DNA of 20,496 bases from Elainellales cyanobacterium. Its GTDB lineage: Bacteria > Cyanobacteriota > Cyanobacteriia > Elainellales > Elainellaceae. Where the stretch lies: assembly GCA_038204505.1 (NCBI GenBank), contig JBBRCV010000084.1, positions 1 through 20,496 on the forward strand, given 5' to 3'. Shown here piece after piece: positions 1 through 14,718 of this stretch. The notes under the pieces were generated by a model. It saw nothing but the letters and a program-made list of their open reading frames with translations, was not told the DNA's origin and did not search any database. Position 1 is the stretch's first letter. Each line of letters opens with the position of its first letter. The translations under genes were made by a program, and so were the position numbers.

Positions 1-227
1 GAAATCGTGTGCCTGATTTTGATGATCAACTGATGTTAATCGCAGCAGGATTATGGAACTTGTATTTAGAGGTAGCGTAAGTAGAACAAGAAGCCGGAAA
101 CCCTGTCCTCAAGCCAGTTTTATTACCCAACAAGTCTAATATGTTCAACGACCAAACTTGCAGGAAGAATTTCATCGACCGGGGTGCTCATACTGGCTTT
201 CTCTAGTTAATTCTGCTGTTGGCTATG

Positions 228-746
228 CTATTGGCTATCATGAGCCTGTCGTTGACTCCCTCGATACTGCTTTTGGCGATCGCCTAGATAACCTTGGTCT
301 TTCTGAAAACTACTGCGCTGACTACTGCGCTGACTACTGCCGTTCTGAGCCTGACGTTTTTTCTGAGTATTTTTCTGACTATCTCTCTGAATATCAGGGG
401 CAACAAATTCTTCCCGAATCCATCCTTTTAACTTAGATGAGTCGGCGAACTGTACGTGTTTCCAGATAGAGCCTTCATTGCTACCAACCTGTTCAAGCAC
501 GGTCACGCGATCGCCTCCTAATCCATATCCAACTCGCCGTTTTTCGATTCCTGGTTGAGGATAAACATTAATCTTAAAACTTGGCTCTGGAGCAACTAGC
601 ACACTCGGCTGATTCAGGCTTTGATTACTTTGATTGCTGCTTAAACTGCCATCTAAATTTCCATCTGCAAAGGCAAACGGCGCAAAAACGGTTAAGCTTA
701 GCGCGATCGCCATTAGAACCGCAATAATAAATGGTTTGAACGTCAT
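228..746 (-). CDS. small secreted protein with cleavable-looking signal peptide, possible SH3b-like fold, Gln/Ser/Arg-rich C-terminal tail
   Basis: 172-aa ORF. N-terminus MTFKPFIIAVLMAIALSLTVFAPFAFA-D has the n/h/c organisation of a signal peptide. The C-terminal SSQRSSQRSS is encoded by an in-frame 12-bp tandem repeat. No confident family assignment from sequence alone. Confidence 0.55.
   Translation of the reverse strand: MTFKPFIIAVLMAIALSLTVFAPFAFADGNLDGSLSSNQSNQSLNQPSVLVAPEPSFKINVYPQPGIEKRRVGYGLGGDRVTVLEQVGSNEGSIWKHVQFADSSKLKGWIREEFVAPDIQRDSQKNTQKKRQAQNGSSQRSSQRSSFQKDQGYLGDRQKQYRGSQRQAHDSQ
309..340. repeat. 2.7 copies of the 12-bp unit ACTACTGCGCTG, in frame within the secreted-protein gene (encodes SSQR repeats)
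   Basis: Read directly. Confidence 0.8.
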
Positions 747-796
747 AGTCTTTAACCGCTAATCTTTAGTTACGCTAATCTTTAGTTACTAACTTA

Positions 797-2152
797 TTAA
801 ACTTTTGTCTCTTGTTCGTATGCCAATTCTCCCATGATGTAAGTTGCCTCAACAGCCCGATCATCTCCCATGATTATCAGCGTAAATGCCAGCTCTGCTA
901 GCTCATCTAATGACATTGCTGTAGGCTCCGGGTTACGGAATGCCATCAAGGGTGTGGAACGCAAATTTAGCACAATAAAATCAGCTTCTTTACCAGGATC
1001 AAAATTGCCAATAGTATCCTCTAGCGACAGTGCTCTCGCTCCTCCCAACGTTGCTAAAAAGAGTGCTTGGAAGGCAGAAAGCTTTTGCTGTCGCAGTTGT
1101 GCCACTTTGTAAGCTTCGCTTGCCGTTTGCAGCAGCGAAAAGCTAGTTCCTGCTCCTACATCGGTTCCTAAACCAACTTTTACCGGATGTTCTGTTGATT
1201 TGGCTTGCTCAATTTTAAACAAACCGCTGCCCAAGAATAGATTAGAGGTCGGGCAAAAGGCGATCGCTGATTCAGCTTCCGACAGCCGCTTAAGCTCCTC
1301 ATCAGTTAGGTGTATGCCATGGGCAAATACAGAGCGGTTTCGCACTAGCCCAGCTTGATCATAGGCATCCAAGTAGCCGCTAGATTCTGGAAATAGCTCC
1401 TTTACCCACGCCACTTCATTCACATTCTCAGAGATATGCGTGTGTAGATAAACGTCTGGAAATTCATCCAGCAACTTTCCTGCTAAATGCAATTGCTCAT
1501 TTGTAGAAGTGATGGCGAACCGAGGCGTAACAGCATAGAGCAGCCGCCCGTTTTTGTGCCATTTCTGGATGAGGGCTTTGCTGTCCTGATACGAGGTTTC
1601 AGCGGTGTCTCTGAGCGAATCAGGAGCATGACGATCCATCATCACTTTACCTGCAATCATTCTGAGATTACGACGACTCGCCTCTTCAAAAAAAGCGTCA
1701 GTTGATACCGGAAATACCGTAGTAAATACTAGAGCCGTCGTTGTTCCATTTTTCAGCAGCTCATCTAGAAAAAAAGCAGCAACCTTCTGAGCATAAGCTT
1801 TATCGTTGAACTTACCTTCAGTCGGAAAAACATACTGATTTAGCCATTCCAAAAGCTGTTCGCCGTAAGCAGCAATAATTTCAGTTTGAGGAAAATGAAT
1901 GTGAGTATCAATAAATCCCGGCATAATCAGCCGCCCAGCACAGGAGATGATGGGCAACGCCGCATACCGCTCCTTGAGGCGATCGTAAGCTCCTAGCTCC
2001 TTAATCTTTCCGTTTTCCAGAATGAGCAATCCATCAGGAATATAACGAACGCTTTCTGATTCAGAACTGTAAAAGGGGTCATCAACAAAGTCCAGGAAAG
2101 AGCCGCGAAATGCCTTAAGGGAAGGTTCTTGGGATTGAGTAAAGTTTGGCAT
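797..2152 (-). CDS. guaD: guanine deaminase (amidohydrolase superfamily)
   Basis: 451 aa. N-terminal metal-binding block PGFIDTHIHFPQ and the later HTHISEN block are the hallmark His motifs of guanine deaminase/cytosine-deaminase-like amidohydrolases. The start is ATG at 2152. Sits in a cluster with a purine permease. Confidence 0.85.
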   Translation of the reverse strand: MPNFTQSQEPSLKAFRGSFLDFVDDPFYSSESESVRYIPDGLLILENGKIKELGAYDRLKERYAALPIISCAGRLIMPGFIDTHIHFPQTEIIAAYGEQLLEWLNQYVFPTEGKFNDKAYAQKVAAFFLDELLKNGTTTALVFTTVFPVSTDAFFEEASRRNLRMIAGKVMMDRHAPDSLRDTAETSYQDSKALIQKWHKNGRLLYAVTPRFAITSTNEQLHLAGKLLDEFPDVYLHTHISENVNEVAWVKELFPESSGYLDAYDQAGLVRNRSVFAHGIHLTDEELKRLSEAESAIAFCPTSNLFLGSGLFKIEQAKSTEHPVKVGLGTDVGAGTSFSLLQTASEAYKVAQLRQQKLSAFQALFLATLGGARALSLEDTIGNFDPGKEADFIVLNLRSTPLMAFRNPEPTAMSLDELAELAFTLIIMGDDRAVEATYIMGELAYEQETKV

Positions 2153-2223
2153 ATCAAATATATATACGCTACCATCTCTAATTCATTAGCTCTAATTCAC
2201 TAGAGAAATATTTTACTGCTCAG

Positions 2224-3348
2224 CTATCTATCCGGTTCTAACGCTGTGCTCTCAGCAGCAAGAGGCAATGATGCTTCTGAGCTGGCAAGATTTGCATTTG
2301 CTGGTGCGATCGCCCCAGTTCTCTTACTCGCAAACCTCCTGACAATTTCGTCGCGCTGGTTCACCAGATACACGCTAATCAGCGTTAAAACAACGCCGAT
2401 CCATTGCAGTCCAGACAGGGTTTCATCTAAAAGCAGGCTGCTAAACAGCAGGGCAAAAACTGGTGTTAGGAAGATAAGCGCACTGACGCTGGTCATGTTA
2501 CCATTTGCTGCCAAATAGAAAAATATTCCATACGTAATTGCTGTGCCAAACACCGTTGCATAGCCCAATCCAGCCCAGTCGCTGACGTGGAGGTTCACCA
2601 TCTGACTGTCCTCCCACATAAAAGACAGCGCCATCAGCGGCAGCCCACCCAGAATCATGTGCCAGCCCGTTGCTACCAGCGGATCAGCATGTTGCTTCAC
2701 ATAGTGAATAATGATGGTGCCAAAGGACATGGCTAGAGCCGCTAACAGCATTAGTAATTCGCCACTATTGAGCAGGTTTTGAACGTTGAATCCAGAAGCG
2801 ATAATCGGCTGCGAATTTGCCAGACTATCTTTGCTGCTCAGAACAGCCTGAACCGTATAAGGAACAGAAATTCCCAGATTTTGCAGGAGATTAAAGAACC
2901 AATAGCCGGGTAAGCCGCACAAGCAAATGCCTGCTAGCCCAATTCCTAAGCCTAGCCAGCCCCATAGCCCAATGAGTTCACCGAATAGAAACCTTGAGAG
3001 TAATGCCACGACCAAAGGTTGAGCATCAATCAAGATAGCTCCTATTCCTGCTCCTGTATGTACCAATCCCTCGGTGAGAAAGCCTTGAAAGATTGCTCCA
3101 TTGATCAGGGCAAATAAGCCAATCCACAGCCACGCTTGCCAGGTTTTGGGCTGGGGTCGCTTTAGCAGAGCCGCAACACCTAAGATTAAGACTCCTGCTG
3201 GCAAAAGACGAAATGCAGCGAGGAAGAGCGGCGTTGTATTAGGAAGAATGAACTTCATTACAACCATCGCTGTTCCTAAAAAGAAAAAAGGAGCAACTAG
3301 GAAGAGGGGCGATCGCGTAAAATCCGACTTTTCTGTTTGTATTTGCAT
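2224..3348 (-). CDS. EamA/DMT-superfamily transporter (10-TM, duplicated EamA halves)
   Basis: 374 aa, about ten hydrophobic helices in two similar halves. The pattern is typical of drug/metabolite transporter (EamA) proteins. Hydrophilic C-terminal tail. Lies between the permease and guaD on the same strand. Confidence 0.7.
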   Translation of the reverse strand: MQIQTEKSDFTRSPLFLVAPFFFLGTAMVVMKFILPNTTPLFLAAFRLLPAGVLILGVAALLKRPQPKTWQAWLWIGLFALINGAIFQGFLTEGLVHTGAGIGAILIDAQPLVVALLSRFLFGELIGLWGWLGLGIGLAGICLCGLPGYWFFNLLQNLGISVPYTVQAVLSSKDSLANSQPIIASGFNVQNLLNSGELLMLLAALAMSFGTIIIHYVKQHADPLVATGWHMILGGLPLMALSFMWEDSQMVNLHVSDWAGLGYATVFGTAITYGIFFYLAANGNMTSVSALIFLTPVFALLFSSLLLDETLSGLQWIGVVLTLISVYLVNQRDEIVRRFASKRTGAIAPANANLASSEASLPLAAESTALEPDR

Positions 3349-3485
3349 GGGCTGACATCACCGTTTCTGATGAAGGTTTTGATGAGAAGGAACGAACCTA
3401 TCGATCCAGGATTTAGGCAGGAGGTCTACCCCAAGAGATGCTAGGGGCTGCTTTTTTCATCAAGCCTCACCCCGTTGATAAACCA

Positions 3486-4925
3486 TTAACCTTTACTAAA
3501 CCGCAGCGTCATAAAGATGAACCGAGCGACAAAGATGCCTGCAATGATCCAAGTGCCCAGCGATACTTCATGCGCTTTGCCCTGGAACGCTTTGAGGAGC
3601 GGATAGGTAATAAACCCGATTGATAATCCTTCGGCAATGGAGAAGGTTAGAGGAATCATAAAAACTGTCAGGAAGGCTGGAATTGCCACCGCCATATCAT
3701 CCCAATCAATCTCTCTAATCTCCGACAGCATCATCGCTCCCACAATCACTAGCGTTGGTGTGGTGGCAAAAGCTGGGATGCCAGCAAAAAGCGGAATGAA
3801 AAATAGCGCCACCACAAATAAAGTGCCAATGACGATCGCAGTAAAGCCAGTTCGTCCCCCTTCAACGACTCCAGCCACCGATTCTATATAAACAGTGACG
3901 CTGGAAGTCCCCACTAAAGGACCAACGGTTGTGCCAATGGCATCCGCCATTAGCGCTCGGTTTGCACGGGGAAGCTGACCATCGGGACCAATGTAGCCTG
4001 CCCGCATTCCCACACCCGTCAATGTGCCAATAGTGTCAAAAATATCAACGAACAAAAAGACAAGCAGCACCGCGAACCAATCAATAAAGTTTTGACTATT
4101 GAGTTGACTCAGACCGCCGATCGCCTGTCCGAGCAGCGCCTGGGGAACCTCTGGAAATGCAAAGATACCTTTGGGCCAGGGCGTAACGCCTGAGATCCAG
4201 GCTAGGGCGGCAGTTGCAATAATGCCAATCAAGAGCGCTCCTCTAACCCGCCGCACCACTAAACCTGCGGTAATTAGTAGCCCGATCGCTGCCATCAACG
4301 TATTAGGTTCAGCGAAGCTGCCGAAGGCGGTTTTAGTGGCTTCGCTGGCTACAATTAAGCCCGCGCCCCCTTCTTTTACAGAACCCGACAGACCAATGTA
4401 GGCAATAAACAAGCCAATTCCACCTGCGGTCGCATGTTTAATTGAAGAGGGAATCGCTTGGATCAAATGGCGACGAACATCAGTGAACGTTAAAACGATG
4501 AATATTAGACCCTGAACAAACACGCAGGATAATGCCAATCGCCAATCGATCTTGAGTCCAATGACGACAGAAAAGGCAAAGAAAGCGTTGGTTCCCATAC
4601 CGGGCGCTAACCCAAAGGGATAGTTAGCAAAAAAGCCCATACACAAAGTAGCAACTGCCGCTGCGATCGCGGTAGCCACTGCCAGTTGAGAAAATAAATC
4701 GCCAGGTTTTTCCAGAAAAATGGCGTTCGACAAAATGATAGGATTCACCACCAGGACATATCCCATCGTCATAAAGGTGGTAATGCCTGCCAGAATTTCT
4801 GTTTTGAACCCTGTTTTGTAGAAATTAAACTTGAAGTAGTCCGCAATTGCGGCTTGCCAACCGCTGTAGGGTGAACCTTGAGGCGGCTCTGATCGTTCAA
4901 TGCCAGCATCTGTATCTGTATTCAT
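3486..4925 (-). CDS. NCS2-family purine permease, AzgA/PbuG-like (guanine/hypoxanthine/adenine)
   Basis: 479 aa. The N-terminus YFKFNFYKTGFKTEILAGITTFMTMGYVLVVNPIILS is the characteristic opening of AzgA-type xanthine/uracil-permease-family purine transporters. Multi-TM throughout. ATG at 4925 with GGAGA 13 nt upstream on the minus strand. Confidence 0.85.
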   Translation of the reverse strand: MNTDTDAGIERSEPPQGSPYSGWQAAIADYFKFNFYKTGFKTEILAGITTFMTMGYVLVVNPIILSNAIFLEKPGDLFSQLAVATAIAAAVATLCMGFFANYPFGLAPGMGTNAFFAFSVVIGLKIDWRLALSCVFVQGLIFIVLTFTDVRRHLIQAIPSSIKHATAGGIGLFIAYIGLSGSVKEGGAGLIVASEATKTAFGSFAEPNTLMAAIGLLITAGLVVRRVRGALLIGIIATAALAWISGVTPWPKGIFAFPEVPQALLGQAIGGLSQLNSQNFIDWFAVLLVFLFVDIFDTIGTLTGVGMRAGYIGPDGQLPRANRALMADAIGTTVGPLVGTSSVTVYIESVAGVVEGGRTGFTAIVIGTLFVVALFFIPLFAGIPAFATTPTLVIVGAMMLSEIREIDWDDMAVAIPAFLTVFMIPLTFSIAEGLSIGFITYPLLKAFQGKAHEVSLGTWIIAGIFVARFIFMTLRFSKG

Positions 4926-4941
4926 TAAACTAGCTTTCTCC

Positions 4942-4978
4942 TATTTGCTGGTGCATCTCTAGCCTTACCTAGCAAATA
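4942..4978 (-). promoter_or_regulatory. inverted repeat (TATTTGCTgG / CtAGCAAATA, 8-bp perfect core, about 21-nt spacer) in the permease leader immediately 5' of its Shine-Dalgarno
   Basis: Seen directly in the sequence. On the mRNA it would form a stem-loop ending about 4 nt before GGAGA. It could equally be a DNA operator. Confidence 0.25.
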
Positions 4979-5477
4979 CTTTTGCCGATAAAGCGTTACT
5001 TGGCTCAAATAATAGGAAGATTGTGAGACTCTAGCTGTTATTTTGAATACAATATTGCATTGAATTTAAAATCTTAATTGAACCCGCTCAGCTCAGAAAT
5101 TTTAACTACTTTATTTATGTACTTTGAAGATTCATATTGATATCTTTTACCAGCTTTATTTAGAAGCTGTCTATTCATCAATAATAGCCTCTATTGCCCA
5201 CTAATCAAGCTATTTGACTGTGATAAAACTATAAGTTGCTGTGCAATACCCATCAAATCTGCTAATGACAAACTATCAAAATGATGGCTTTTCTACAAAC
5301 GCTTCAAACGCTTCCTAACTTTGCCGTATTGAGGCTTAATTTTGTGATATTAATTGAACAGATGCGATCGCCGTATTTACTCTTCTAAAGTTTTCAACTA
5401 TACAAAACCGCCTCATACAATTTGCTATATATTTGCCAGGTATACTGTAGGTAGTTGAGCTATCTTACACACTGAAT

Positions 5478-6563
5478 ATGCTAGTAACACAACAATCTGT
5501 ATTGCGTCGATTCTGGTATCCAGTTGTTCCGATTGTGGACTTGTCAGATGGATTGAAGACATTTGAATTACTAGGCGAGAAAATTGTCCTCTGGCTAGAT
5601 TCAGACGAGAAACCCGTTGCTGCTCAAGATCGCTGTTGCCATCGATCTGCTCAACTTTCTCTAGGCACTGTGATTAACGGCAATGTCTCGTGTGCTTATC
5701 ACGGTTGGCAATTTGATAGCTGTGGCACCTGCGTGCATGTTCCACAACTCAAGCCAGATCAGGCAATTCCTCCTAGTTACAAAATCCAAACTTACCGCTG
5801 TATGAAACAATATGGCTATGTTTGGGTTTGTTTAGAGGAACCTTTTACTGATATTCCGGCGATCGCTGAAGCCACTGATCCAGCCTTTCGGCTCATCCAT
5901 GAGTTTTACGAACCGTGGCAATGTGCTGGATTACGAGTCATGGAGAACGAGTTTGATCTGGCTCACCCAACATTTGTTCACACCACGACCTTTGGTAGCG
6001 AAGACCATCCCATTCCCGATGTATTGGAAGTGACTGAGACGGAGTGGGGATTGCACGTACAAGGGACATTAGGCGTTGTCAATCCAGAGTTACAACAGCA
6101 AAATTTGAGCATGGATGAGCAACAAACGGTTCGTACTTTGGATATGACCTGGTTTATGCCGTTCACGGTGAGACTGCGAATTAATTATCCGAATGGAATG
6201 GCTCATATCATTGTCAATACGATGACTCCCATTAATGACTCAACTTCTCAAATGGTGCAGTTTTGCCTACGCAACGATACGGAGGCAGATACGCCCAGCC
6301 AGGATGTAATTGCGTTCGATCGGGCTGTCACTTTAGAAGACAAGCGAATTTTAGAATCGACCGATTATGATGTACCGCTAAGTCCAGGTCAGGAGCAGCA
6401 TATGTTCACTGACAAGCCCGGAATTATCATGAGAAAAAAGATAGCTGCTCTCCTTAAAGCGCATGATGAGGTGGAACATACCAGAGACAATAGTGAGAGC
6501 AGAGTCACAAAAATTTCTGATAAATCTGATAAAAATGGTGTTCCAATCAAGACTCTGCACTAA
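5478..6563 (+). CDS. Rieske [2Fe-2S] non-heme-iron oxygenase, PAO/Tic55/ring-hydroxylating alpha-subunit-like
   Basis: 361 aa. Rieske motif CCHRSAQL...(17)...CAYHGW, i.e. CxH...CxxH. Mononuclear iron motif NEFDLAHPTFVH, i.e. D-x2-H-x4-H. ATG at 5478. Confidence 0.8.
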   Translation: MLVTQQSVLRRFWYPVVPIVDLSDGLKTFELLGEKIVLWLDSDEKPVAAQDRCCHRSAQLSLGTVINGNVSCAYHGWQFDSCGTCVHVPQLKPDQAIPPSYKIQTYRCMKQYGYVWVCLEEPFTDIPAIAEATDPAFRLIHEFYEPWQCAGLRVMENEFDLAHPTFVHTTTFGSEDHPIPDVLEVTETEWGLHVQGTLGVVNPELQQQNLSMDEQQTVRTLDMTWFMPFTVRLRINYPNGMAHIIVNTMTPINDSTSQMVQFCLRNDTEADTPSQDVIAFDRAVTLEDKRILESTDYDVPLSPGQEQHMFTDKPGIIMRKKIAALLKAHDEVEHTRDNSESRVTKISDKSDKNGVPIKTLH

Positions 6564-6624
6564 TAAAATTCTCCTTGAGTTGTTAACATTCGATGCTGTC
6601 CCTTTTAGGGTGACTTTCCTGGTG

Positions 6625-6652
6625 CTTGTAGAGAGCGATCGCCCTCTACAAG
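6625..6652 (+). terminator. 9-bp perfect stem (CTTGTAGAG/CTCTACAAG) around a HIP1-containing loop, about 60 nt after the Rieske stop; no strong U-tract
   Basis: Inverted repeat visible in the sequence. The downstream context is only weakly T-rich. Confidence 0.25.
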
Positions 6653-6736
6653 AGCGTATTCCTGATCACTTTTAGAGCTGTGCAAGATATGGGATCATGG
6701 GTGGATAAGAAGCTTCAAGAGCTAGATTAACGGGTT

Positions 6737-7054
6737 GTGATTGTGTTCTCCAAAACTACTGCTTTAGAGTGGATTCAAACCAACATCCACATTGCCCTCT
6801 TGCTCTGTTTAACAGCATTCATTCTGGGAATGCTTACAGGTATTCTCGTGAGTCAGCAGATGCTCCAGAAACAGCGAACTAATTTCTCGGAAGAGAACCA
6901 GCAGGTAGAAATATCCTTACGGCAAAGTGAAGCCAAATTTAGGCGCTTTGTTGAATCAAATGTGATTGGCGTATATGTTGCTGATTTTAATGGAGCAATT
7001 TTTGAAGCTAACGATGCTTTCTTAGAAATGGTGGGTTACACACAAGACGGATGA
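6737..7054 (+). pseudogene. 5' fragment of a membrane-anchored PAS sensor gene (TM helix, coiled region, first ~45 aa of a PAS domain), truncated
   Basis: 105 codons from a GTG start. One TM (IHIALLLCLTAFILGMLTGILV), then FRRFVESNVIGVYVADFNGAIFEANDAFLEMVGYTQDG, which is the beginning of a PAS fold. The frame then stops. No continuation of PAS, HisKA or HATPase is found in any frame downstream. Confidence 0.5.
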
Positions 7055-7096
7055 CTTGCAGTAACCACTGTCATAAGCTACACAGGAAGTGCAATG

Positions 7097-7128
7097 TGAC
7101 ATCTATAGTCTTAGCAACACGTTATAAT
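7097..7128 (+). promoter_or_regulatory. candidate promoter for the toxin-antitoxin pair: consensus -10 TATAAT at 7123-7128, weak -35-like TGACAT 20 nt upstream
   Basis: Perfect TATAAT hexamer about 48 nt upstream of the toxin start. The -35 spacing is non-ideal. TTCAAG/CTTGAA inverted half-sites flank the region. Confidence 0.35.
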
Positions 7129-7175
7129 ATTTCAAGCATCTTCTGTTGGCTCAAGCACTCTGAAGGTTCTTCAAC

Positions 7176-7424
7176 TTGAAATACGAAGTTGTCTTAAAGC
7201 CGAAAGCCATTAAGGATTTGCAAAAGCTGCCGCTTAACACACAGACTCGGATTCTCGAAAAAGTAGAATTTGTCCAAAATGACTTGCAGGGAGATGTAAA
7301 GCATTTGACGAACTTCACTCCGGAATATCGTCTGAGAGTGGGCAACTACCGTATCTTATTCGAGATTGAAGATGGCAAGATCGTCATTTACCGTATCAAA
7401 CATCGTAGTGAAGCCTATTCATAG
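7176..7424 (+). CDS. type II toxin, RelE/ParE superfamily
   Basis: 82 aa: MKYEVVLKPKAIKDLQKLP...RILEKVEF...YRLRVGNYRILFEIEDGKIVIYRIKHRSEAY. This matches the canonical RelE/ParE pattern (xYxVxFsxxAxKdLkKL ... yRlRvGdYRiiYeidd...v.ilrIgHRkdvY). The apparent start is TTG at 7176, the first start codon after an in-frame stop, with GAAGG upstream. Confidence 0.8.
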   Translation: MKYEVVLKPKAIKDLQKLPLNTQTRILEKVEFVQNDLQGDVKHLTNFTPEYRLRVGNYRILFEIEDGKIVIYRIKHRSEAYS

Positions 7425-7436
7425 GAAGAGACAATT

Positions 7437-7637
7437 ATGCTTCAACTAAATCCTGAGTTTTTGAAGAAAAATGGTAAGCCTGAGTTTGTTGTGTTGCCCT
7501 ACGAGGAATTCCTACTATTGCAAGAACTGCTGGCTGACTTGGAAGATTTACAAGATTTGAGACAGGCAAAAATGGATGAGAAAGATGCACCTTCTGTATC
7601 TTTGGCGGAAGCAAAGGCAATGTTAAATCTGTCATAG
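7437..7637 (+). CDS. Phd/YefM-like antitoxin (short form), encoded downstream of its toxin
   Basis: 66 aa: GKPEFVVLPYEEFLLLQELLADLEDLQDLRQAKMDE resembles the beta-strand plus acidic-helix core of Phd/YefM (..kPvaVlvs.eeYe.L.EtLedledl...rea). The ATG lies 10 nt after the toxin stop, with AGGAAGAGA just upstream. Confidence 0.55.
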   Translation: MLQLNPEFLKKNGKPEFVVLPYEEFLLLQELLADLEDLQDLRQAKMDEKDAPSVSLAEAKAMLNLS

Positions 7638-7690
7638 CGCTTGAATTTAGACGGAAGCAGCAGTAGCCTAATCAGTCGTTGTGACGCAAA

Positions 7691-7729
7691 TTGATCGGTT
7701 GAGAAAGTATTTCAGTTTGATCGGTTGAG
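7691..7729 (+). repeat. two perfect 13-bp direct repeats TTGATCGGTTGAG (7691-7703 and 7717-7729) between the antitoxin and the next ORF
   Basis: Exact repeats read directly, 26 bp centre to centre. Far too long for chance in a 100-bp gap. Confidence 0.8.
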
Positions 7730-7740
7730 GCAAAAGGGTC

Positions 7741-8175
7741 GTGGGGTATATGGGAACAAGTATTTGCGATGAAATCGAGACTGCTCGTGATTGTGGAGTT
7801 GTGCACTGTCACATCATCAAAGAATTCCCTATGTCGCTTGACGAACTTGCTCCAAGATTTGGGTTGCTTTTTACGCCTCGCACGTATCGAGAAATTGGAA
7901 AGGAGCAAGCAGAGAAAGTTGCCAAGCGTATCCTTCATTGCGATTTAGCCTATGACTCAGAACTTATGGCGGAAAGGGAAGCAGAACAGCTAGCAAGTCG
8001 GTTTCTGGGATATTTTGAAGAAAAAGACACGCAGTATTACACGAATGGGGACTATTACATAACAGATGCTGGAAGTCAGGGTTGGCACCCAGCTACATCT
8101 GCGACACTTGACACAGGAATCCTTGTTGTTGCTAAGTCACAATCAGGATGTCTTTGGGTAGAAGATGAAGATTAA
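7741..8175 (+). CDS. hypothetical protein; C-terminal NGDYYITD...GCLWVEDED resembles SUKH/Smi1-Knr4-type immunity-protein motifs (tentative)
   Basis: 144 codons from GTG at 7741. ATG at 7750 or ATG at 7831 (MSLDELAPRFG...) are alternative starts. No catalytic motifs. Acidic C-terminus. Lies on the same strand after the TA pair, inside the AT-rich HIP1-free segment. Confidence 0.45.
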   Translation: MGYMGTSICDEIETARDCGVVHCHIIKEFPMSLDELAPRFGLLFTPRTYREIGKEQAEKVAKRILHCDLAYDSELMAEREAEQLASRFLGYFEEKDTQYYTNGDYYITDAGSQGWHPATSATLDTGILVVAKSQSGCLWVEDED

Positions 8176-8316
8176 GTCTTGCTTGTAATCTTTGTGTAGG
8201 TCGATTTTGTTGATAGCGATGCTGTACAACAACCTTATTGGAGCAGACTCACGAGATCTACATTATACGAGCCGCTTAATAAGAACGTTAGCTCTCTCTA
8301 AAGCTGACTGTCATAG

Positions 8317-8357
8317 GAGATGGGCAAAAATGAGAGCACTCAGAGTCTGCCCATCTC
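8317..8357. repeat. 10-bp perfect inverted repeat GAGATGGGCA...TGCCCATCTC with 21-nt spacer, between convergent genes
   Basis: Seen directly. Lies 50-90 nt past the flotillin stop on the minus strand. No U-tract on either strand. Immediately preceded by ACTGTCATA, which also occurs at 7067-7075. Confidence 0.5.
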
Positions 8358-8407
8358 AGGAATTTAGCAAGCTTTATCTAGGCTTCTGAAACGATGGGTT
8401 ACTCAGC

Positions 8408-10549
8408 CTATGTACCGACCTTTTCATCTGGCTTGGCAGATCCGTTGACGATCGGATCAAGGGGCAGCAGCGCCGGCTCAACCCATTGAGAAGACTGCTC
8501 AGGTGGAGTGGGCTGATTGGGATCAAAAGGCTTTTTGCCCGTTTGATTCCAGAGAATCATGGAGAGTAAGCCATCAACTAAGCCGTTGCCATTGCCGTTG
8601 TTACCGACCAAAACATCGGGGATCAGGCGAACGTGGCGATCGCCAATAATTTGCATCAACTGCATTGCTGTGTAGCTCTGCCCACCCAAGGCATCCACCC
8701 CAGCTTGATAGGTTTCTGCTTTAGCGTTTCCGGTTGCCCGAATCGCCTCAGCTTCCCCAGTTGCCTTCAGTCTGATCGATTCGGCTTCCCCAGTGGCTTG
8801 CTTAATCTGAGCATTGGCTTTGAGTTCGGCAATGGTGACACTTTGTTCAGATTGCACTAACTCTTGCTGAATATCTGCTAGCGCGGTTTCACGAACCAAC
8901 TGCTGACGCTGAGTTTGTGACAGTTGTTGAACTTCGTAGGTCTTGCGCTTTTCTTCGGCAAGTTTGCGCTCGGTCTGGGTTTGCATCAGCTCAGCAGGAG
9001 GTTGGATGCCGCCGATGAGGGTATCGATCGCCTGGACATCGTAAGTACGCAGAGCCGTTCTGATGTATCCTGACGCTTCCGCTTGCCGTTCGCTACGAGC
9101 ATTGAGAAAATCTAGCACCGTATAGTCTTGGGCTGAATTGCGGAAGTAGTTGCCAATACTGGGTTCTAAGACGTTATCCACCAGGTTTTGCATAGAGCCG
9201 ACGCGAGAAATCACCTTGGGCGCATCCAAAGCCCCCACATGAATAATTTGCGAGACTTCCAGGGCAAAGGCAAACCCGTCGTTAGAACGAACCGTTAGGG
9301 CTTCTAAATTGTCATCGTAGTGATGGCGCTCGGTTCGGTCTGCCCAGTTCAGCACAATATTGATGGTGGGCACAAGTTCCACTTTCATGACGCGGGTATT
9401 GATGGGGTGCTTGCCAGGATAAAGCGGTTCTACCCAAACTCCCTTATGCCCCACCCGGACTAAGTTGCCGTGGGTAAATGCGGCACCGCTAACATCATCG
9501 GGAGCATCGCCCACAAAGGACACGACAACTCCCACGTAGCCAATCGGAATTTCGGTCATGGGTACTTGCTCAACTCGGACAAACCAGGGGTTAAGGTTCC
9601 AAGAGCCAGACAGCAGAATTTGTTGCTGTAAGCCGCGTCGTCCGCCCTGTTGAATGAACTTCTGCCCGTTTTGAAAGTTATCGTGATCGGGGACGGTGGC
9701 TCCGGCAAGTTCTCCCGATTCAATCGGCATCCCATCTAGGGTAGAGACAATGCCCACTTTGTCGGGCTGCATAGAATAGACACGAAGCTGCTCTGGCTGC
9801 ATTCCTTGTTTTGCAGCATTTTCAGCCGTAACAACTTTGAATAATGCCGTGTTAAGGCGGTAAGTCCCAGCGGTTAGGAAGCCAAGCTGACGACCCTTCT
9901 CACCGCCATTCGTGAGGAACTTGCGTGCATCTTGGAAGTTATCGCAAGGGACGACTTTGCCCAAAAGTCTTTCTAGAGGAATGGAGGTGCCGTCGTTGGC
10001 AACGAGAAGCGCCACTTCGCCTTGGGGAATGACAAGGAGTGACTCTTTGCGAACGCTGAACTGCCAGGGCCAATAGCCCCAATGCCAGCCCGGAGCGAGA
10101 GTATCGGCTTGGTAGCCCGCTTCGCCTTCGAGGGCAATCAACCGACCAGGGGGCAGGCGGCGACCAGAGAAGGAGACTTTTTTCACCACAATGCCGACTT
10201 CGCGTTCGCTGACAATGACCAATCCACCGCAGGCTAGCGCGATGAAGATGCCACCTGCGATCGCCACTGGTAAAACCGCCCAGCCCAAGGGAAATCTGCC
10301 CAGTTGCGCCAGTTGAACCTGAGCCACTGGAACCGGAGCAACAGGCAATTTAATAACTTGGGCTGCCACAGAGGGGGGTGTTACAGAGGAGGCTGTTACA
10401 GAAATTTCAGGCAGCGGCGATGCCAGAGCGCGTTGGGGTGTGACACTTGAGGCGATCGCGCTGGAGGCGAGGAGGGCTGTAGCGAGGCGAATGAAGTGAC
10501 GAGATTTGCGAGATTTAGAGCGCATGGAAGAATTTGAAGCGATTTCCAT
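8408..10549 (-). CDS. flotillin-like SPFH/band-7 protein with an unusual signal-like, Ser/Thr/Pro/Ala-rich N-terminal extension
   Basis: The SPFH core and long C-terminal Ala/Glu/Gln-rich coiled coil (ATGEAESIRLKATGEAEAIRATGNAKAETYQAGVDALGG) are typical of FloT/YqiK flotillins. Residues about 32-75 are MEIASNSSMRSKSRKSRHFIRLATALLASSAIASS followed by an S/T/P/A/V-rich linker. A TM segment (FPLGWAVLPVAIAGGIFIALACGGLVIV) comes just before the SPFH domain. The six-frame ORF extends to 10642 but begins with TTG. ATG at 10549 (MEIAS) or ATG at 10525 (MRSKSRK) is more plausible. The end at 8408 is firm. Confidence 0.8.
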   Translation of the reverse strand: MEIASNSSMRSKSRKSRHFIRLATALLASSAIASSVTPQRALASPLPEISVTASSVTPPSVAAQVIKLPVAPVPVAQVQLAQLGRFPLGWAVLPVAIAGGIFIALACGGLVIVSEREVGIVVKKVSFSGRRLPPGRLIALEGEAGYQADTLAPGWHWGYWPWQFSVRKESLLVIPQGEVALLVANDGTSIPLERLLGKVVPCDNFQDARKFLTNGGEKGRQLGFLTAGTYRLNTALFKVVTAENAAKQGMQPEQLRVYSMQPDKVGIVSTLDGMPIESGELAGATVPDHDNFQNGQKFIQQGGRRGLQQQILLSGSWNLNPWFVRVEQVPMTEIPIGYVGVVVSFVGDAPDDVSGAAFTHGNLVRVGHKGVWVEPLYPGKHPINTRVMKVELVPTINIVLNWADRTERHHYDDNLEALTVRSNDGFAFALEVSQIIHVGALDAPKVISRVGSMQNLVDNVLEPSIGNYFRNSAQDYTVLDFLNARSERQAEASGYIRTALRTYDVQAIDTLIGGIQPPAELMQTQTERKLAEEKRKTYEVQQLSQTQRQQLVRETALADIQQELVQSEQSVTIAELKANAQIKQATGEAESIRLKATGEAEAIRATGNAKAETYQAGVDALGGQSYTAMQLMQIIGDRHVRLIPDVLVGNNGNGNGLVDGLLSMILWNQTGKKPFDPNQPTPPEQSSQWVEPALLPLDPIVNGSAKPDEKVGT

Positions 10550-10623
10550 ATCGATGATTCGGTTCACCCGAGGGGTATGTGACGAATACAACCTAGCACT
10601 TCTGTCTAGCTCTGGTAAATTTC

Positions 10624-12336
10624 TTAATTTTTGAGTAAACAATCTGCTTTAAGAACAATTAACTGCGGCGTTTTTAGGACTCGGCACTTCCGAGTTAGTT
10701 TTGACAATGCTGGGATTTTCCCCGCCTCTAACTTCGTTAAAGCTTCTGTAAATGCAGGTTGAAAGCTTCTTAGCCAGCTTTTAGGCTCGGTGGTCAAATA
10801 TTCTGGTCTGAATGTATCGCGGTGTAGTACCCAGAAATCGATGCCATATTTTTGAATAAATTGCTGAGTTTTACCTAAATCCTCGCTGTACTGCGCCTCG
10901 ATTAAATCAATAGTGCGCTGACGAATTTGGTTGTAGTAGCCCAGATGGAAGGGCAGGGCGTACTCTCTGCCGACGAGGAGCGATCGCTTTGCAAACGTTG
11001 GAATATTACTCGCTTCGTCTGCCAAAGTTGCAATCAAACTATCTTTGGGCTGCTGCTGAAAAAACTCGTACAGCGCAGTCTCTCCAGACACGATGTAGCC
11101 TGCTCTGGGAAAATGTCGGAAGAACGCTGGATAGAATACTACTGCGATGGTTAATCCAGCCGTTAACGATAGGATTGCGAATCTTTTGAAAGGGCGATCG
11201 CCCATCTGCTCACAGGCACGCAACGTCATATCTAGCAGGAGAATGAGAGTGATACCAGCGGCAAGGGCGATCGCAATTCTCCAGGTATGTCCGGTGTAGC
11301 GCGTCGGGAAAAAAAGTTTAAGAATAACTGCATGGGCAGCAAAGTACAGACCCAAAGCCACCGCCGCCATCTGAGGCAAAATCTTAATATCTGGACTCAC
11401 CTGCGCTGCCAACGGAAATCGAGTCGGTTTTTTCAGCAGCAGTGGTAACAGAAAACCTGTCCACACCAAAGGCGGCACAAACCGGGGCAGGATGCCGCTA
11501 TTAGAACCAACCAGCCAGAATTTCCAAGGATTAGGATCATAAAACGGATGCCTGCCGCCTGTCCAGAGTTCGGGCATGGTGCGGGCTTGAGCGGCGGTAA
11601 CGGTGGGACCAAATTCGGCAGAGGCAATGATGTAGGGCAGCATGGCGAGGAATCCTAGCCCCGTGATGATGGCAAATGTAATGAGCGATCGCTTCGTAAA
11701 ACTAGGCAGCCAACCTTTCCAATGGGCGAGGCGAACGAAGAGAATGCCCAGGGAAATGAATATGAGGAGCGGATAAAAGAGGGCTTGTAGGATGATAACG
11801 AAGGTGAGCGATCGCCAAGACCCGCGCAGCAAGTAATACAAAAACGCCAGCAGTAGAGGCGTAGCAAACGAGCGAGGAGCTGCCGCCGCCAAATCTTCCC
11901 GCAGCCATAGCCCTTGATTGAGCAACTGCATCGCCACAAACCCAGCCGCCGGAATTGGGAAAAGCTGGAGGCTGACTTTAAATCCATAAAACGTTAGGAG
12001 TAAACCTAGGGCGATCGGCAAAAGTTTACTAAACGTCAGCGGCTCTACTCCCAAATGCGCCATCAGTTGATAGACAGCCGCATATCCCAATGGCGCAATG
12101 GACTTGAAATAATCTGCGATCAAATCATTAGGAAACAATGCCGGATCAACAAACCGCTGCATCCAAAACACATACTCGCGCGCGTCATCCTGCACCACGA
12201 AAGCAGACTGAAAGGCTTGCCGCATTCCCAAAATGGCGTAGTAGGCGGAAAAGATGAGGCTTAAGCCTAACCAAAATCGTTCTAGTGCTTTGGTGCCGGA
12301 AGCGGTGACAAACTGGCGCAAACGGGAGAAGAGCAT
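10624..12336 (-). CDS. polytopic membrane protein, putative GT-C-fold glycosyltransferase (ArnT/PMT-like architecture)
   Basis: 570 aa. About 11-13 hydrophobic helices in the first 420 residues, then a roughly 150-aa soluble C-terminal domain. The first extracytoplasmic loop after TM1 carries an acidic DDAREY motif placed like the DE/DxD motif of GT-C enzymes (ArnT DEARY, PMT DE). ATG at 12336. The stop lies 74 bp upstream of the flotillin ATG, or overlaps it if the TTG start is used. Confidence 0.6.
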   Translation of the reverse strand: MLFSRLRQFVTASGTKALERFWLGLSLIFSAYYAILGMRQAFQSAFVVQDDAREYVFWMQRFVDPALFPNDLIADYFKSIAPLGYAAVYQLMAHLGVEPLTFSKLLPIALGLLLTFYGFKVSLQLFPIPAAGFVAMQLLNQGLWLREDLAAAAPRSFATPLLLAFLYYLLRGSWRSLTFVIILQALFYPLLIFISLGILFVRLAHWKGWLPSFTKRSLITFAIITGLGFLAMLPYIIASAEFGPTVTAAQARTMPELWTGGRHPFYDPNPWKFWLVGSNSGILPRFVPPLVWTGFLLPLLLKKPTRFPLAAQVSPDIKILPQMAAVALGLYFAAHAVILKLFFPTRYTGHTWRIAIALAAGITLILLLDMTLRACEQMGDRPFKRFAILSLTAGLTIAVVFYPAFFRHFPRAGYIVSGETALYEFFQQQPKDSLIATLADEASNIPTFAKRSLLVGREYALPFHLGYYNQIRQRTIDLIEAQYSEDLGKTQQFIQKYGIDFWVLHRDTFRPEYLTTEPKSWLRSFQPAFTEALTKLEAGKIPALSKLTRKCRVLKTPQLIVLKADCLLKN

Positions 12337-12716: not shown

Positions 12717-12860
12717 CTCACTATGTTAAAACGCAAGTACTGTTAGAGTTCGCAGCTTGAGAATTATGGTAAAACCTTATCTCAAGCCTCTAGAGTGAGC
12801 GGCGTTTCTAGAATCAAGTTGCCGCGATGGTTTTCTAATTCATAATTGCTACGTTTTCTT

Positions 12861-13913
12861 ATGAACCAAAGTGTTATTTCCCTATTTTCAGGTTGCGGCG
12901 GACTCGACCTAGGATTCCTGAAGGCGGGTTTTCCTATTACTTGGGCCAATGAGTACGACAAGGATATTTGGGCGACTTATGAAGCCAATCATCTCGACAC
13001 ATTTTTAGACCGCAGAGACATTCGGAAAATTAAGTCAGAAGAAATTCCCGATTGTATTGGTATTATTGGCGGTCCCCCTTGCCAAAGCTGGAGCGAAGCT
13101 GGTTCTCAGCGAGGCATAGAAGATGATCGAGGCAGATTATTTCTAGAATATGTTCGGATTTTAAAAGACAAACAGCCTTGCTTCTTTCTGGCTGAAAATG
13201 TGTCTGGAATGTTGCATGAGAAACATAGGCGAGCTATTCAAAATATTGTTTCGGCGTTTGAAGAAGCGGGTTATACAGTTTCATTTAAACTACTCAATGC
13301 AATGAACCACAATGTTTCCCAGGAAAGGAAACGAGTTATCTTTGTGGGTTACCGTGTCGATCTCAATAAACAGTTTGATTTCAACAGGGTTAATGTATCG
13401 CCTAAAATTCCCACTCTTAAAACCGCCATCTGGGACTTACAGGAGACCGCAATTCCTGCCTTAGCAACTAACAAAACAAATGCCGAAGCCTGTCTCTTCC
13501 CTAACCATGAGTATATGATTGGGGGCTTCTCCAGCATGTATATGTCTCGCAATCGGGTGCGATCGTGGGATGAGCCTTCATTCACGATTCAAGCAGGCGG
13601 CAGACATGCCCCATTGCATCCTCAAGCCAACAAGATGTTATTTGTGGAGAAAGACAAGTTTGCTTTCGATGAGCGATCGCTCTATCCATATCGCAGACTT
13701 TCTGTCCGAGAATGCGCCAGGATTCAAACTTTCCCCGATAATTTTATTTTTCACTATCGAGATCTTAGTGCAGCTTACAAAATGATTGGTAACGCTGTCC
13801 CTGCCAATTTGGGCTTTGCACTGGCTCAGGCAATTTATCAAGATCTATTCTCTAGCTCTGAAGCATCTCCGACCCTTACCCCACAGAAGCAACTGAGTCT
13901 TCAGATTGCGTAG
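12861..13913 (+). CDS. DNA (cytosine-5)-methyltransferase, M.HaeIII-like (predicted GGCC specificity)
   Basis: Conserved C5-MTase motifs: [67 protein letters not shown] and YKMIGNAVP. Block for block it matches my recollection of the M.HaeIII primary sequence ([35 protein letters not shown]). That is recollection, not a database search. The true start is probably ATG at 12861 (MNQSVISLF). The track start at 12846 is TTG. GGCC is about 25-fold depleted in the window. Confidence 0.9.
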
Positions 13914-13929
13914 CCTCCCATCTCAAGCG

Positions 13930-14718
13930 TTACTTTTTCTTTTCAATCATTAAGAAATATACTGTCCTGCGCTCAGACTCAGGAAAATTCTCGCGCCATC
14001 TTCGTTTGGTTTCCTTATGGGGTTTTGGTTGTCCAACAACATCCTTAAAAACCCAAGGCACATTCTCAACCTTGCGCGATATACTCCCTGCCCGAGTATG
14101 TTCAGAGTCACTTTCTTGCCCAACCCATTGCCTTCTAATTGCGACCTCAAGCTTAAATTTATATTGTTCAAAGTATTCATCGAAAGACCAGAGTAAAAGC
14201 TCATCTGCACTGTTGATTTTTTTGGGTGCTTCCAAAATAAATTCTGCGGGATGGGTTGAAGCTCCAAGATTCGGGCTTCCCTTCAGCATGAGAAACTGCA
14301 TCAGCGTCCTAAAATCTGGTTCTGAGAATAGGTTTTTCCAAGGTTGGTTTCTTTTAAGGAGTATCCCTTGATGAAACTTGTTAACTTCTCTATCAATGTT
14401 GGAGATGATCAGTTCAGGGTGAGTTAACCCCAAATCTGTGTACACCTCTAATAGGTTGGCTCTTTGCAAGCGATTAAAGGCAAAACTCCCGCCCGATTGT
14501 TTGATCGAAAGACCTCTACCGTTCAAGTAAATATCAGCTTTCTTACTGGCATGGGAAGTCGAAATCTGGGAGAGATCTTCTACCGAGTGAAGAGAGGTAT
14601 AGCGATCGCATCCCAAAATAGGAGCCGATATCTCCTCAACTAGCCCAATATGGTTCAACCGAACCTTGCCCAGGTTCAAAATTAAAAACTTACAAACCTC
14701 TAGCTCATTCCCTGCCAT
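13930..14718 (-). CDS. putative type II restriction endonuclease, cognate of the HaeIII-like methyltransferase (function inferred from position)
   Basis: 262 aa. ATG at 14718. Convergent with the MTase, with 16 bp between the stops. No transporter, enzyme or HTH motifs recognised. Candidate PD-(D/E)xK-like region KKADIYLNGRGLSIK. Basic C-terminus. Type II endonucleases diverge too fast to identify from sequence alone. Confidence 0.45.
   Translation of the reverse strand: MAGNELEVCKFLILNLGKVRLNHIGLVEEISAPILGCDRYTSLHSVEDLSQISTSHASKKADIYLNGRGLSIKQSGGSFAFNRLQRANLLEVYTDLGLTHPELIISNIDREVNKFHQGILLKRNQPWKNLFSEPDFRTLMQFLMLKGSPNLGASTHPAEFILEAPKKINSADELLLWSFDEYFEQYKFKLEVAIRRQWVGQESDSEHTRAGSISRKVENVPWVFKDVVGQPKPHKETKRRWRENFPESERRTVYFLMIEKKK

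Follow-up and report, generated by a model that had tools for sequence, protein, structure and literature searches.

Remnants of bacterial genes that arise through microhomology-mediated deletion or rearrangement share a recognizable structure, namely a sharp junction with a microhomology of a few bases, a gene whose 5' part runs into unrelated spacer sequence and an early stop, and intact parental layouts in related genomes. Two-component kinases of the NarL class combine a transmembrane (TM) segment with PAS, HisKA_3 and HATPase_c domains and are accompanied by a REC-GerE response regulator. Among toxin-antitoxin (TA) modules, an inverted, toxin-first gene order is typical of HigBA and is also found in cyanobacterial loci of the RelE type (PMC4963859). 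A locus to which these descriptions apply is present in contig JBBRCV010000084.1 of an Elainellales cyanobacterium (GenBank assembly GCA_038204505.1, positions 1 to 20,496, which are the whole contig; this stretch of 20,496 nucleotides is here called the window), where a 105-codon fragment of a sensor-kinase gene is followed by a relE-phd TA pair, a 144-codon open reading frame (ORF144) and a flotillin gene. A preliminary description of the window proposed that relE, phd and ORF144 form a horizontally acquired cassette of roughly 1.24 kb, bounded by a 9-bp direct repeat, whose arrival, or a later deletion, removed the body of the sensor gene. Comparison with related genomes points instead to positions 7044-7047 as what is very probably a strain-specific junction, created by illegitimate recombination, that abuts the kinase gene to a relE-phd block already resident beside the flotillin gene.

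A sensor-kinase gene interrupted at a four-base microhomology

To the left of the junction, positions 140-7047 of the window are collinear, at 78-85% nucleotide identity, with L093, a 126-kb metagenome contig (JAESFK010000064.1) found by a metagenome scan with the Rieske protein. The collinear run comprises an amidohydrolase, an EamA protein, a permease, a Rieske oxygenase and the 5' end of the kinase gene, and within it the Rieske gene is 84.6% identical at the nucleotide level, and 87% at the amino acid level, to L093 8001-9059. Where the window has the stump, L093 has an intact gene for a 432-amino-acid TM-PAS-HisKA_3-HATPase_c kinase (with a PAS_9 match), followed by a gene for a NarL-type REC-GerE response regulator. 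Residues 10-104 of the stump are 80% identical to the N-terminus of this kinase, and the PAS matches of the stump are partial, covering positions 1-38 of 65 in PAS_8, 2-39 of 113 in PAS and 1-43 of 126 in TIGR00229. The full set of PAS, HisKA_3 and HATPase_c domains is present in the L093 orthologue, whereas the reading frame in the window ends after about 40 PAS residues, and neither the kinase body nor the response regulator is found in the 20.5-kb window. The preliminary description had taken the 105-codon frame for a truncated TM-PAS sensor kinase and had proposed a search of related genomes for the intact gene; the orthologue at the same place in a collinear genome bears it out. Judged from what is left of its domains, the stump cannot signal. 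The orthologue was reached by way of the Rieske gene; a word-based search with the stump returned only the stump itself, and an exact look-up of the Rieske protein returned no record. At the protein level the closest Rieske homologue (90% identity), on contig L092 (JAABUQ010008630.1), has neither flank in common with the window, and the neighbourhood of the Rieske gene is thus also variable among relatives.

To the right of the junction, relatives were reached by exact-protein look-ups and homologue searches. L090 (from Logan) is 97.2% identical to window 7044-7714 over its positions 3039-3708, L091 (from JGI) is 88.8% identical to window 7175-9538, L084 and L087 are 87-89% identical to the window, and L122-L124 (from ENA) are 85-88% identical over window positions 7175-7637, 8340-10634 and 10625-12062. 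In all of these contigs relE-phd adjoins the flotillin gene (85-97% nucleotide identity), and in none is the stump beside it. The resident block has the order relE, phd-like gene, ORF144, flotillin (minus strand) and ORF570 (minus strand). To the left of relE, L090, L091 and L122-L124 have a GGACT gene on the minus strand and genes for a zf-HC2 anti-sigma factor, an ECF sigma factor and a T2SSE ATPase; the Rieske gene and the stump never stand there, and the four genes are all missing from the 20.5-kb window. Because relE-phd stands beside the flotillin gene in relatives that have no stump, the TA block is resident sequence. An empty site, with the stump and the flotillin gene adjacent, was seen in none of L090, L091, L084, L087 and L122, nor was a TA-free GGACT-flotillin site found among 80 flotillin loci in GTDB, which have no neighbour genes in common with the window.

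The two homologies meet within four bases. BLAST alignment to L093 stops at 7047 and alignment to L090 begins at 7044, and in a three-way alignment the junction reads ...GGCTATACCCAAGATGATCTGAGC... in L093, ...GGTTACACACAAGACGGATGACTTGCAG... in the window and ...AAAAACTGTAAGACGGATGGCTTGCAG... in L090. The window follows L093 as far as AAGA (7044-7047) and from AAGA onward follows L090 and L091, and this is the sole break in homology in the region. The kinase-derived part of the stump therefore spans 6737 to about 7047 only, and its last two sense codons and stop (GAC GGA TGA; D, G, stop) come from the GGACT-relE spacer. Since only 11 nt separate the junction point from the GGACT start codon, which in L090 is to its left, the window retains 132 of the 143 spacer bases; the retained spacer, 7044-7175, presumably carries the relE-phd promoter. 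Consensus promoter and terminator scans of 6500-8600 gave no match. A frameshift as the cause of the stump, for which the +1 frame reads DDLQ* (DDLS in L093), was rejected because the sequence is that of the GGACT-relE spacer in L090 and L091, and the likeness of DDLQ to DDLS appears to be part of an imperfect microhomology or chance.

Both parental states, each with intact genes, are found in relatives, the truncated gene occurs in the window only, and the GGACT state is common to the 97% relative and the relatives at about 88% identity, all of which argues that the state of the window is derived and recent. In the proposed event, the 4-bp microhomology AAGA would have been used to join the kinase gene, some 310 nt into its length, to the GGACT-relE spacer, and an in-frame stop two codons past the join would have produced the 105-codon stump. 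The kinase body and the NarL-type response regulator on one side, and the GGACT, zf-HC2 anti-sigma, ECF sigma and T2SSE ATPase genes on the other, would have been removed or relocated, while relE-phd, already in place, would have kept its upstream spacer and would not have been the agent of the truncation. In its simplest form the event would be one deletion of at least about 12 kb. In L093 the 7.3 kb that follow the junction point contain no T2SSE, sigma or GGACT gene, and the kinase and regulator are absent from about 4.9 kb upstream of relE in L122-L124; the two loci are thus not near neighbours in these genomes, which sets the lower bound of about 12 kb for any deletion. The hedge in the preliminary description that a later deletion might have removed the sensor gene is compatible with these data.

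Genes and features of the interval

The features that the preliminary description had listed (the stump, the toxin, the Phd-like frame, ORF144, the 9-mer, the inverted repeat and the gap in HIP1 sites) were all recovered where it had placed them. The features are as follows.

5478-6563, plus strand: Rieske/VanA_C oxygenase gene (PF00355, PF19112), the final intact gene of the left collinear block
6737-7054, plus strand: sensor-kinase stump of 105 codons (TM helix, linker and first ~40 PAS residues)
7044-7047: probable recombination junction, 4-bp microhomology AAGA, found in the kinase gene of L093 as well as in the GGACT-relE spacer of L090 and L091
7044-7175: remaining 132 bp of the ancestral GGACT-relE spacer, within the alignment to L090 3039-3708 (window 7044-7714, 97.2%)
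7067-7075, plus strand: ACTGTCATA, left copy, a chance match within conserved spacer and no boundary
7176-7424, plus strand: relE/parE-family toxin gene, 82 amino acids, TTG start, first in the toxin-first pair
7437-7637, plus strand: short Phd/YefM-like putative antitoxin gene, 66 amino acids, beginning 12 nt 3' of relE
7655-8292: ORF144-bearing segment (approximate bounds, read from alignment), replaced in L122 by about 92 bp
7741-8175, plus strand: ORF144, member of a large unannotated protein family, separate from the TA pair
8215-8313: 99-bp segment missing from L084, the deletion ends having ATAG in common
8307-8315, plus strand: ACTGTCATA, right copy, likewise a chance match, 3' of the flotillin gene
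8317-8357: conserved stem-loop with 10-bp perfect arms, between the convergent ORF144 and flotillin genes
8408-10642, minus strand: SPFH/flotillin gene (PF01145), the resident right neighbour of the TA block

The flotillin gene is 87-89% identical at the nucleotide level to its counterparts in L084, L091 and L122, and by flotillin similarity the source would be a Leptolyngbyaceae-like cyanobacterium. An extra 251-codon gene without a Pfam match lies between the flotillin and ORF570 homologues of L122 (8035-8790), unlike the window, where flotillin and ORF570 overlap (10624-10642) with no gene between them.

Composition and repeats

The preliminary description drew on three properties of the interval, its base composition, its lack of HIP1 sites and its flanking 9-bp repeat. 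The window has 29 HIP1 sites in 20.5 kb, and the longest gap, from 6635 to 8636, is located as described. When sites were placed at random, the largest gap was at least 2000 bp in 85% of cases (P=0.85); because a 2-kb gap is thus expected by chance, it carries no information and is not even mildly unlikely, as had been supposed. Similarly, the interval (42.5% GC) is more AT-rich than the flotillin gene on its right (52.8%) and than the window overall (47.1%), whereas the left flank is equally low (stump 41.2%, spacer before the stump 43.9%, Rieske gene 44.8%), so that the claim of greater AT-richness than the flanks holds on one side only. No step in GC was found at 7055, 10.7% of equal-length windows are at or below the GC of the interval, and the lowest values are reached at about 4500-5850. 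In relE and phd it is codon position 2 (0.24 and 0.22) that lowers the GC content, which points to amino acid composition as the source, and their GC at codon position 3 (GC3; 0.49 and 0.40) is inside the range of the window (0.38-0.53), with ORF144 the lowest at 0.35. Relative to equal-sized chunks of other window genes (leave-one-out likelihood), the codon usage of relE, phd and ORF144 together falls at the 59th percentile (log-likelihood -1.151, null -1.177 +/- 0.051). The preliminary description had named deviating GC and codon usage as a check for acquisition, and statistics like those of the flanks as an argument against it; since codon usage is typical, and the GC3 of relE and phd is in range, that argument applies. 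There is no sign in codon usage or GC3 of a recent foreign origin of the block.

The 9-mer ACTGTCATA is present in the window at 7067 and 8307 only. A 9-mer shared by two 250-bp flanks arose in 20% of shuffles (P=0.20), and several exact repeats of 11-13 nt occur in the same 2.2 kb. At the position of the left copy L090 has ACTGTTATA and L091 has ATTGTTATG, and at that of the right copy L087 has ACTAGCAGA, L091 has ACTAGCAAA and L122 has ACTGACAGA; because relatives carry other bases at both positions, neither copy of the 9-mer is ancestral. The left one is 20 nt to the right of the homology break, inside conserved spacer, and homology to relatives is continuous across the right copy into the flotillin gene. 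From these alignments the repeat appears to be strain-specific, formed by independent substitutions, and to mark no boundary. Of the repeat as a pair of cassette bounds, therefore, the position of the copies and their chance probability of about 0.2 stand, whereas the bounds themselves do not.

The perfect 10-bp inverted repeat next to the right copy (arms 8317-8326 and 8348-8357) has a minimum free energy of -22.3 and -23.5 kcal/mol on the two strands, with z about -2.9 on either. L084, L087 and L091 retain the stem-loop, L091 with two compensatory pairs, and in L122 another hairpin takes its place. The stem-loop is probably a transcript 3'-end or terminator hairpin. A 17-nt indel in the ORF144-flotillin spacer sets L087 and L091 apart from the window.

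The toxin-antitoxin pair

The toxin of the pair can be assigned with confidence, as it matches PF05016 at 52.1 bits (E=1e-13), above the curated cut-off of 23, as well as the RelE-like toxin model PHROG 1213, and its closest solved relatives are the archaeal and mycobacterial RelE proteins RelE3 (3bpq), aRelE (1wmi) and Rv2866. At least 1999 database proteins are homologous to it. The Phd-like frame is a borderline case, scoring 26.3 bits against the Pfam Phd model, below the cut-off of 29.8 and over profile positions 30-69 only (the C-terminal half), and 21.1 against a cut-off of 20.8 for TIGR01552; it also matches the antitoxin model PHROG 2268, and no PDB sequence match was found. Thus, the naming of a RelE/ParE toxin in the preliminary description was sound, and that of a Phd-like antitoxin is near the threshold. 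A partner of 65-66 amino acids lies 9-19 nt 3' of the toxin gene in seven contexts including a plasmid, and the toxin-first pair is conserved in L090, L091, L084, L122, L126 and the conjugative Stanieria plasmid pSTA7437.01, where the toxin is 58% and the partner 62% identical at the amino acid level. From these genes, relE-phd appears to be an ordinary toxin-first type II TA module, for which TA activity would be expected.

On L126 (4813-5456) the pair (toxin 80%, partner 88% amino acid identity) is flanked by MatE and CobW_C genes, a setting unrelated to that of the window, and is found together with an additional 63-codon frame that overlaps the relE start by 4 nt and belongs to no credible family. 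A 42-codon frame in the window (7051-7179), which overlaps the relE start, was considered as an upstream antitoxin and rejected, as it is not conserved (the L122 spacer is only 81 bp). The distribution of the pair suggests that it is mobile over long times, yet resident at this locus throughout the sampled lineage. Its GC content is low relative to GGACT (51%) and flotillin (53%), which is compatible with an old acquisition.

ORF144

The segment that carries ORF144 is the only gene-sized presence or absence difference within the interval that was proposed as a cassette. In L122 the frame is absent between phd and flotillin (5464-5555), its place being taken by about 92 bp with a HIP1 site. Homologues without TA genes occur in Trichocoleus, where the gene lies by a NotI-type restriction-modification (R-M) pair, and in Gloeobacter, and near a Tn7-like element. 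ORF144 is thus not part of the TA module, and as far as its distribution can be followed it behaves as a sporadic accessory gene. A profile search found at least 1182 cluster representatives (at 50% identity), 696 of them with E<=1e-10, and the family has an invariant C-terminal GCLWVEDED motif. No match was found to Pfam (even at E<=5), NCBIfam, PADLOC or PHROG models, a plasmid search gave no match, and the fusion partners of the homologues contain no known domains. Just 5' of ORF144 an exact 13-nt direct repeat, TTGATCGGTTGAG, occurs at 7691-7703 and 7717-7729 with a spacing of 26 nt; it is conserved only partly in L084, L087 and L091 and could be a candidate regulator-binding site.

Alternative explanations

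The acquired cassette of the preliminary description, extending over 7067-8315 and flanked by a 9-bp target-site duplication, would explain why the 9-mer occurs exactly twice in the window, and it would accord with the long-term mobility of the TA pair seen on L126 and the Stanieria plasmid and with a block GC below that of GGACT and flotillin. It is nonetheless scarcely credible as the agent that destroyed the sensor gene, because relatives have the same block beside flotillin without the stump, homology breaks at 7044-7047 and not at the 9-mer, both copies of the 9-mer differ in all relatives, and the sequence beyond the right copy is conserved flotillin 3' flank and not the kinase sequence that an insertion into the kinase gene should have left there. 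No transposase or integrase was found among the window ORFs and domain matches, and in codon usage the three genes resemble the rest of the window. The alignment of relatives that had been recommended for finding the insertion boundaries accordingly defined one breakpoint, at 7044-7047, and no boundaries at the 9-mers. An assembly chimera of two loci might be suspected in a metagenome-style contig whose halves match different reference contigs, and is highly improbable: L081, a Logan contig (SRR19962014) from a separate assembly, matches window 6291-8575 at 100% identity and spans the junction, the 4 bp shared at the join are too few for a k-mer graph to bridge, and an in-frame stop two codons on would be expected if a coding frame had been joined illegitimately to non-coding spacer.

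Other explanations accept the junction and differ in how it was formed. An inversion or translocation would give the same junction, with the 3' part of the kinase gene and the regulator, and the GGACT/sigma block, surviving elsewhere at a reciprocal junction. It is somewhat unlikely, though a serious candidate: the spacing of the two loci in L093 and L122-L124, described above, speaks for it, and nothing direct speaks against it, other than that a deletion needs only one event and one junction, as is seen in this single 20.5-kb contig. Less probable, with only a small chance of being correct, is homology-facilitated illegitimate recombination, in which DNA of a related strain (spacer-relE-phd-ORF144-flotillin) would have been anchored at flotillin, joined at AAGA and would have replaced recipient DNA. 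Short junction microhomology is typical of such events, ORF144 content varies among relatives, and L090 leaves the match to the window after phd; against this, no break in identity or composition was found along 7044-12062 relative to L122 or L091, and on present data such an event is not distinguishable from a simple deletion. The reading of 7044-7047 as a strain-specific illegitimate-recombination junction has its own difficulties. With L093 only about 81% identical around the join, the microhomology of the true parent may have been somewhat longer or shorter; no one genome has both parental loci; the close relatives are all short metagenomic contigs; and L081 may come from the same reads as the window assembly. 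In addition, the match of L090 to the window is lost at about 7714, just 5' of ORF144, so that the last 27 nt of the L090 contig (3709-3735) diverge. This tail has no match among the sequences compared, and the L090 strain may differ from the window downstream of phd.

Other observations in the window

A 28-nt near-perfect palindrome, CTTGTAGAGAGCGATCGCCCTCTACAAG, lies at 6625-6652, centred on a HIP1 site 60 nt past the Rieske stop, and resembles a hairpin of the terminator type with HIP1 at its core. Nowhere is the window more AT-rich than in a 552-bp intergenic region (4926-5477, 34% GC) between the divergent permease and Rieske genes. Further to the right, a C-5 cytosine DNA methyltransferase gene (12846-13913, plus strand) stands beside a convergent 262-codon frame without family matches (together 12846-14718); the two may be an R-M pair, and they lie in a stretch of lower GC (41-44%).

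Significance and comparison with known systems

The locus offers a base-resolved example of the probable loss of a two-component sensor gene by illegitimate recombination, and at this locus the strain is without two pairs that its relatives have, a PAS kinase with its NarL regulator and an ECF sigma factor with its anti-sigma factor. It also illustrates how an insertion can be imitated by a combination of low GC, a gap in HIP1 sites and a short repeat in the flanks. The rearrangement ends 132 bp short of relE and leaves the TA operon whole. The intact operon fits the idea that loss of a chromosomal TA module by deletion is selected against, although one case proves nothing. As a finding in its own right the junction matters little, and the ORF144 family, a modest side lead, is the only element here that might repay more work.

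With respect to HigBA-like modules such as ssl7038-ssl7039 of the Synechocystis plasmid pSYSA (PMC4963859), the relE-phd pair likewise has a predicted toxin of the RelE superfamily upstream of a small partner. The partner differs, however, in being not an HTH/HigA protein but a 66-amino-acid protein that matches the C-terminal half of the Phd/YefM profile, and the toxin differs in matching PF05016, with RelE proteins as its best solved relatives.

For ORF144 the fold, predicted with confidence, resembles only that of eukaryotic Maf1, a repressor of RNA polymerase III, and this likeness is best regarded as a lead and not as membership. In contrast to Maf1, the ORF144 protein is bacterial, has about 140 amino acids and possesses its own invariant C-terminal motif. 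Identity to Maf1 is 5-9%, the Pfam search at E<=5 did not return Maf1, hmmsearch against PDB sequences found nothing relevant and no profile-to-sequence match to any PDB chain, Foldseek returned no match, and nothing relevant on bacterial Maf1-like proteins was found in the literature. That the family is a prokaryotic relative or analogue of Maf1, which would bind RNA polymerase or another large partner, is a conjecture from the predicted fold and an unlikely one.

The stump retains the N-terminus of a NarL-class kinase and, compared with kinases of this class, the window copy is without about 60% of the PAS domain and without any of HisKA_3 or HATPase_c, and the regulator gene is missing as well. 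In relation to the remnants left by microhomology-mediated deletion or rearrangement in other bacteria, nothing about the locus is unusual: the sharp junction with its few-base microhomology, the 5' fragment fused to unrelated spacer, the early stop and the intact parental layouts in relatives are the same. The junction is ordinary genome decay and evolution of known kinds.

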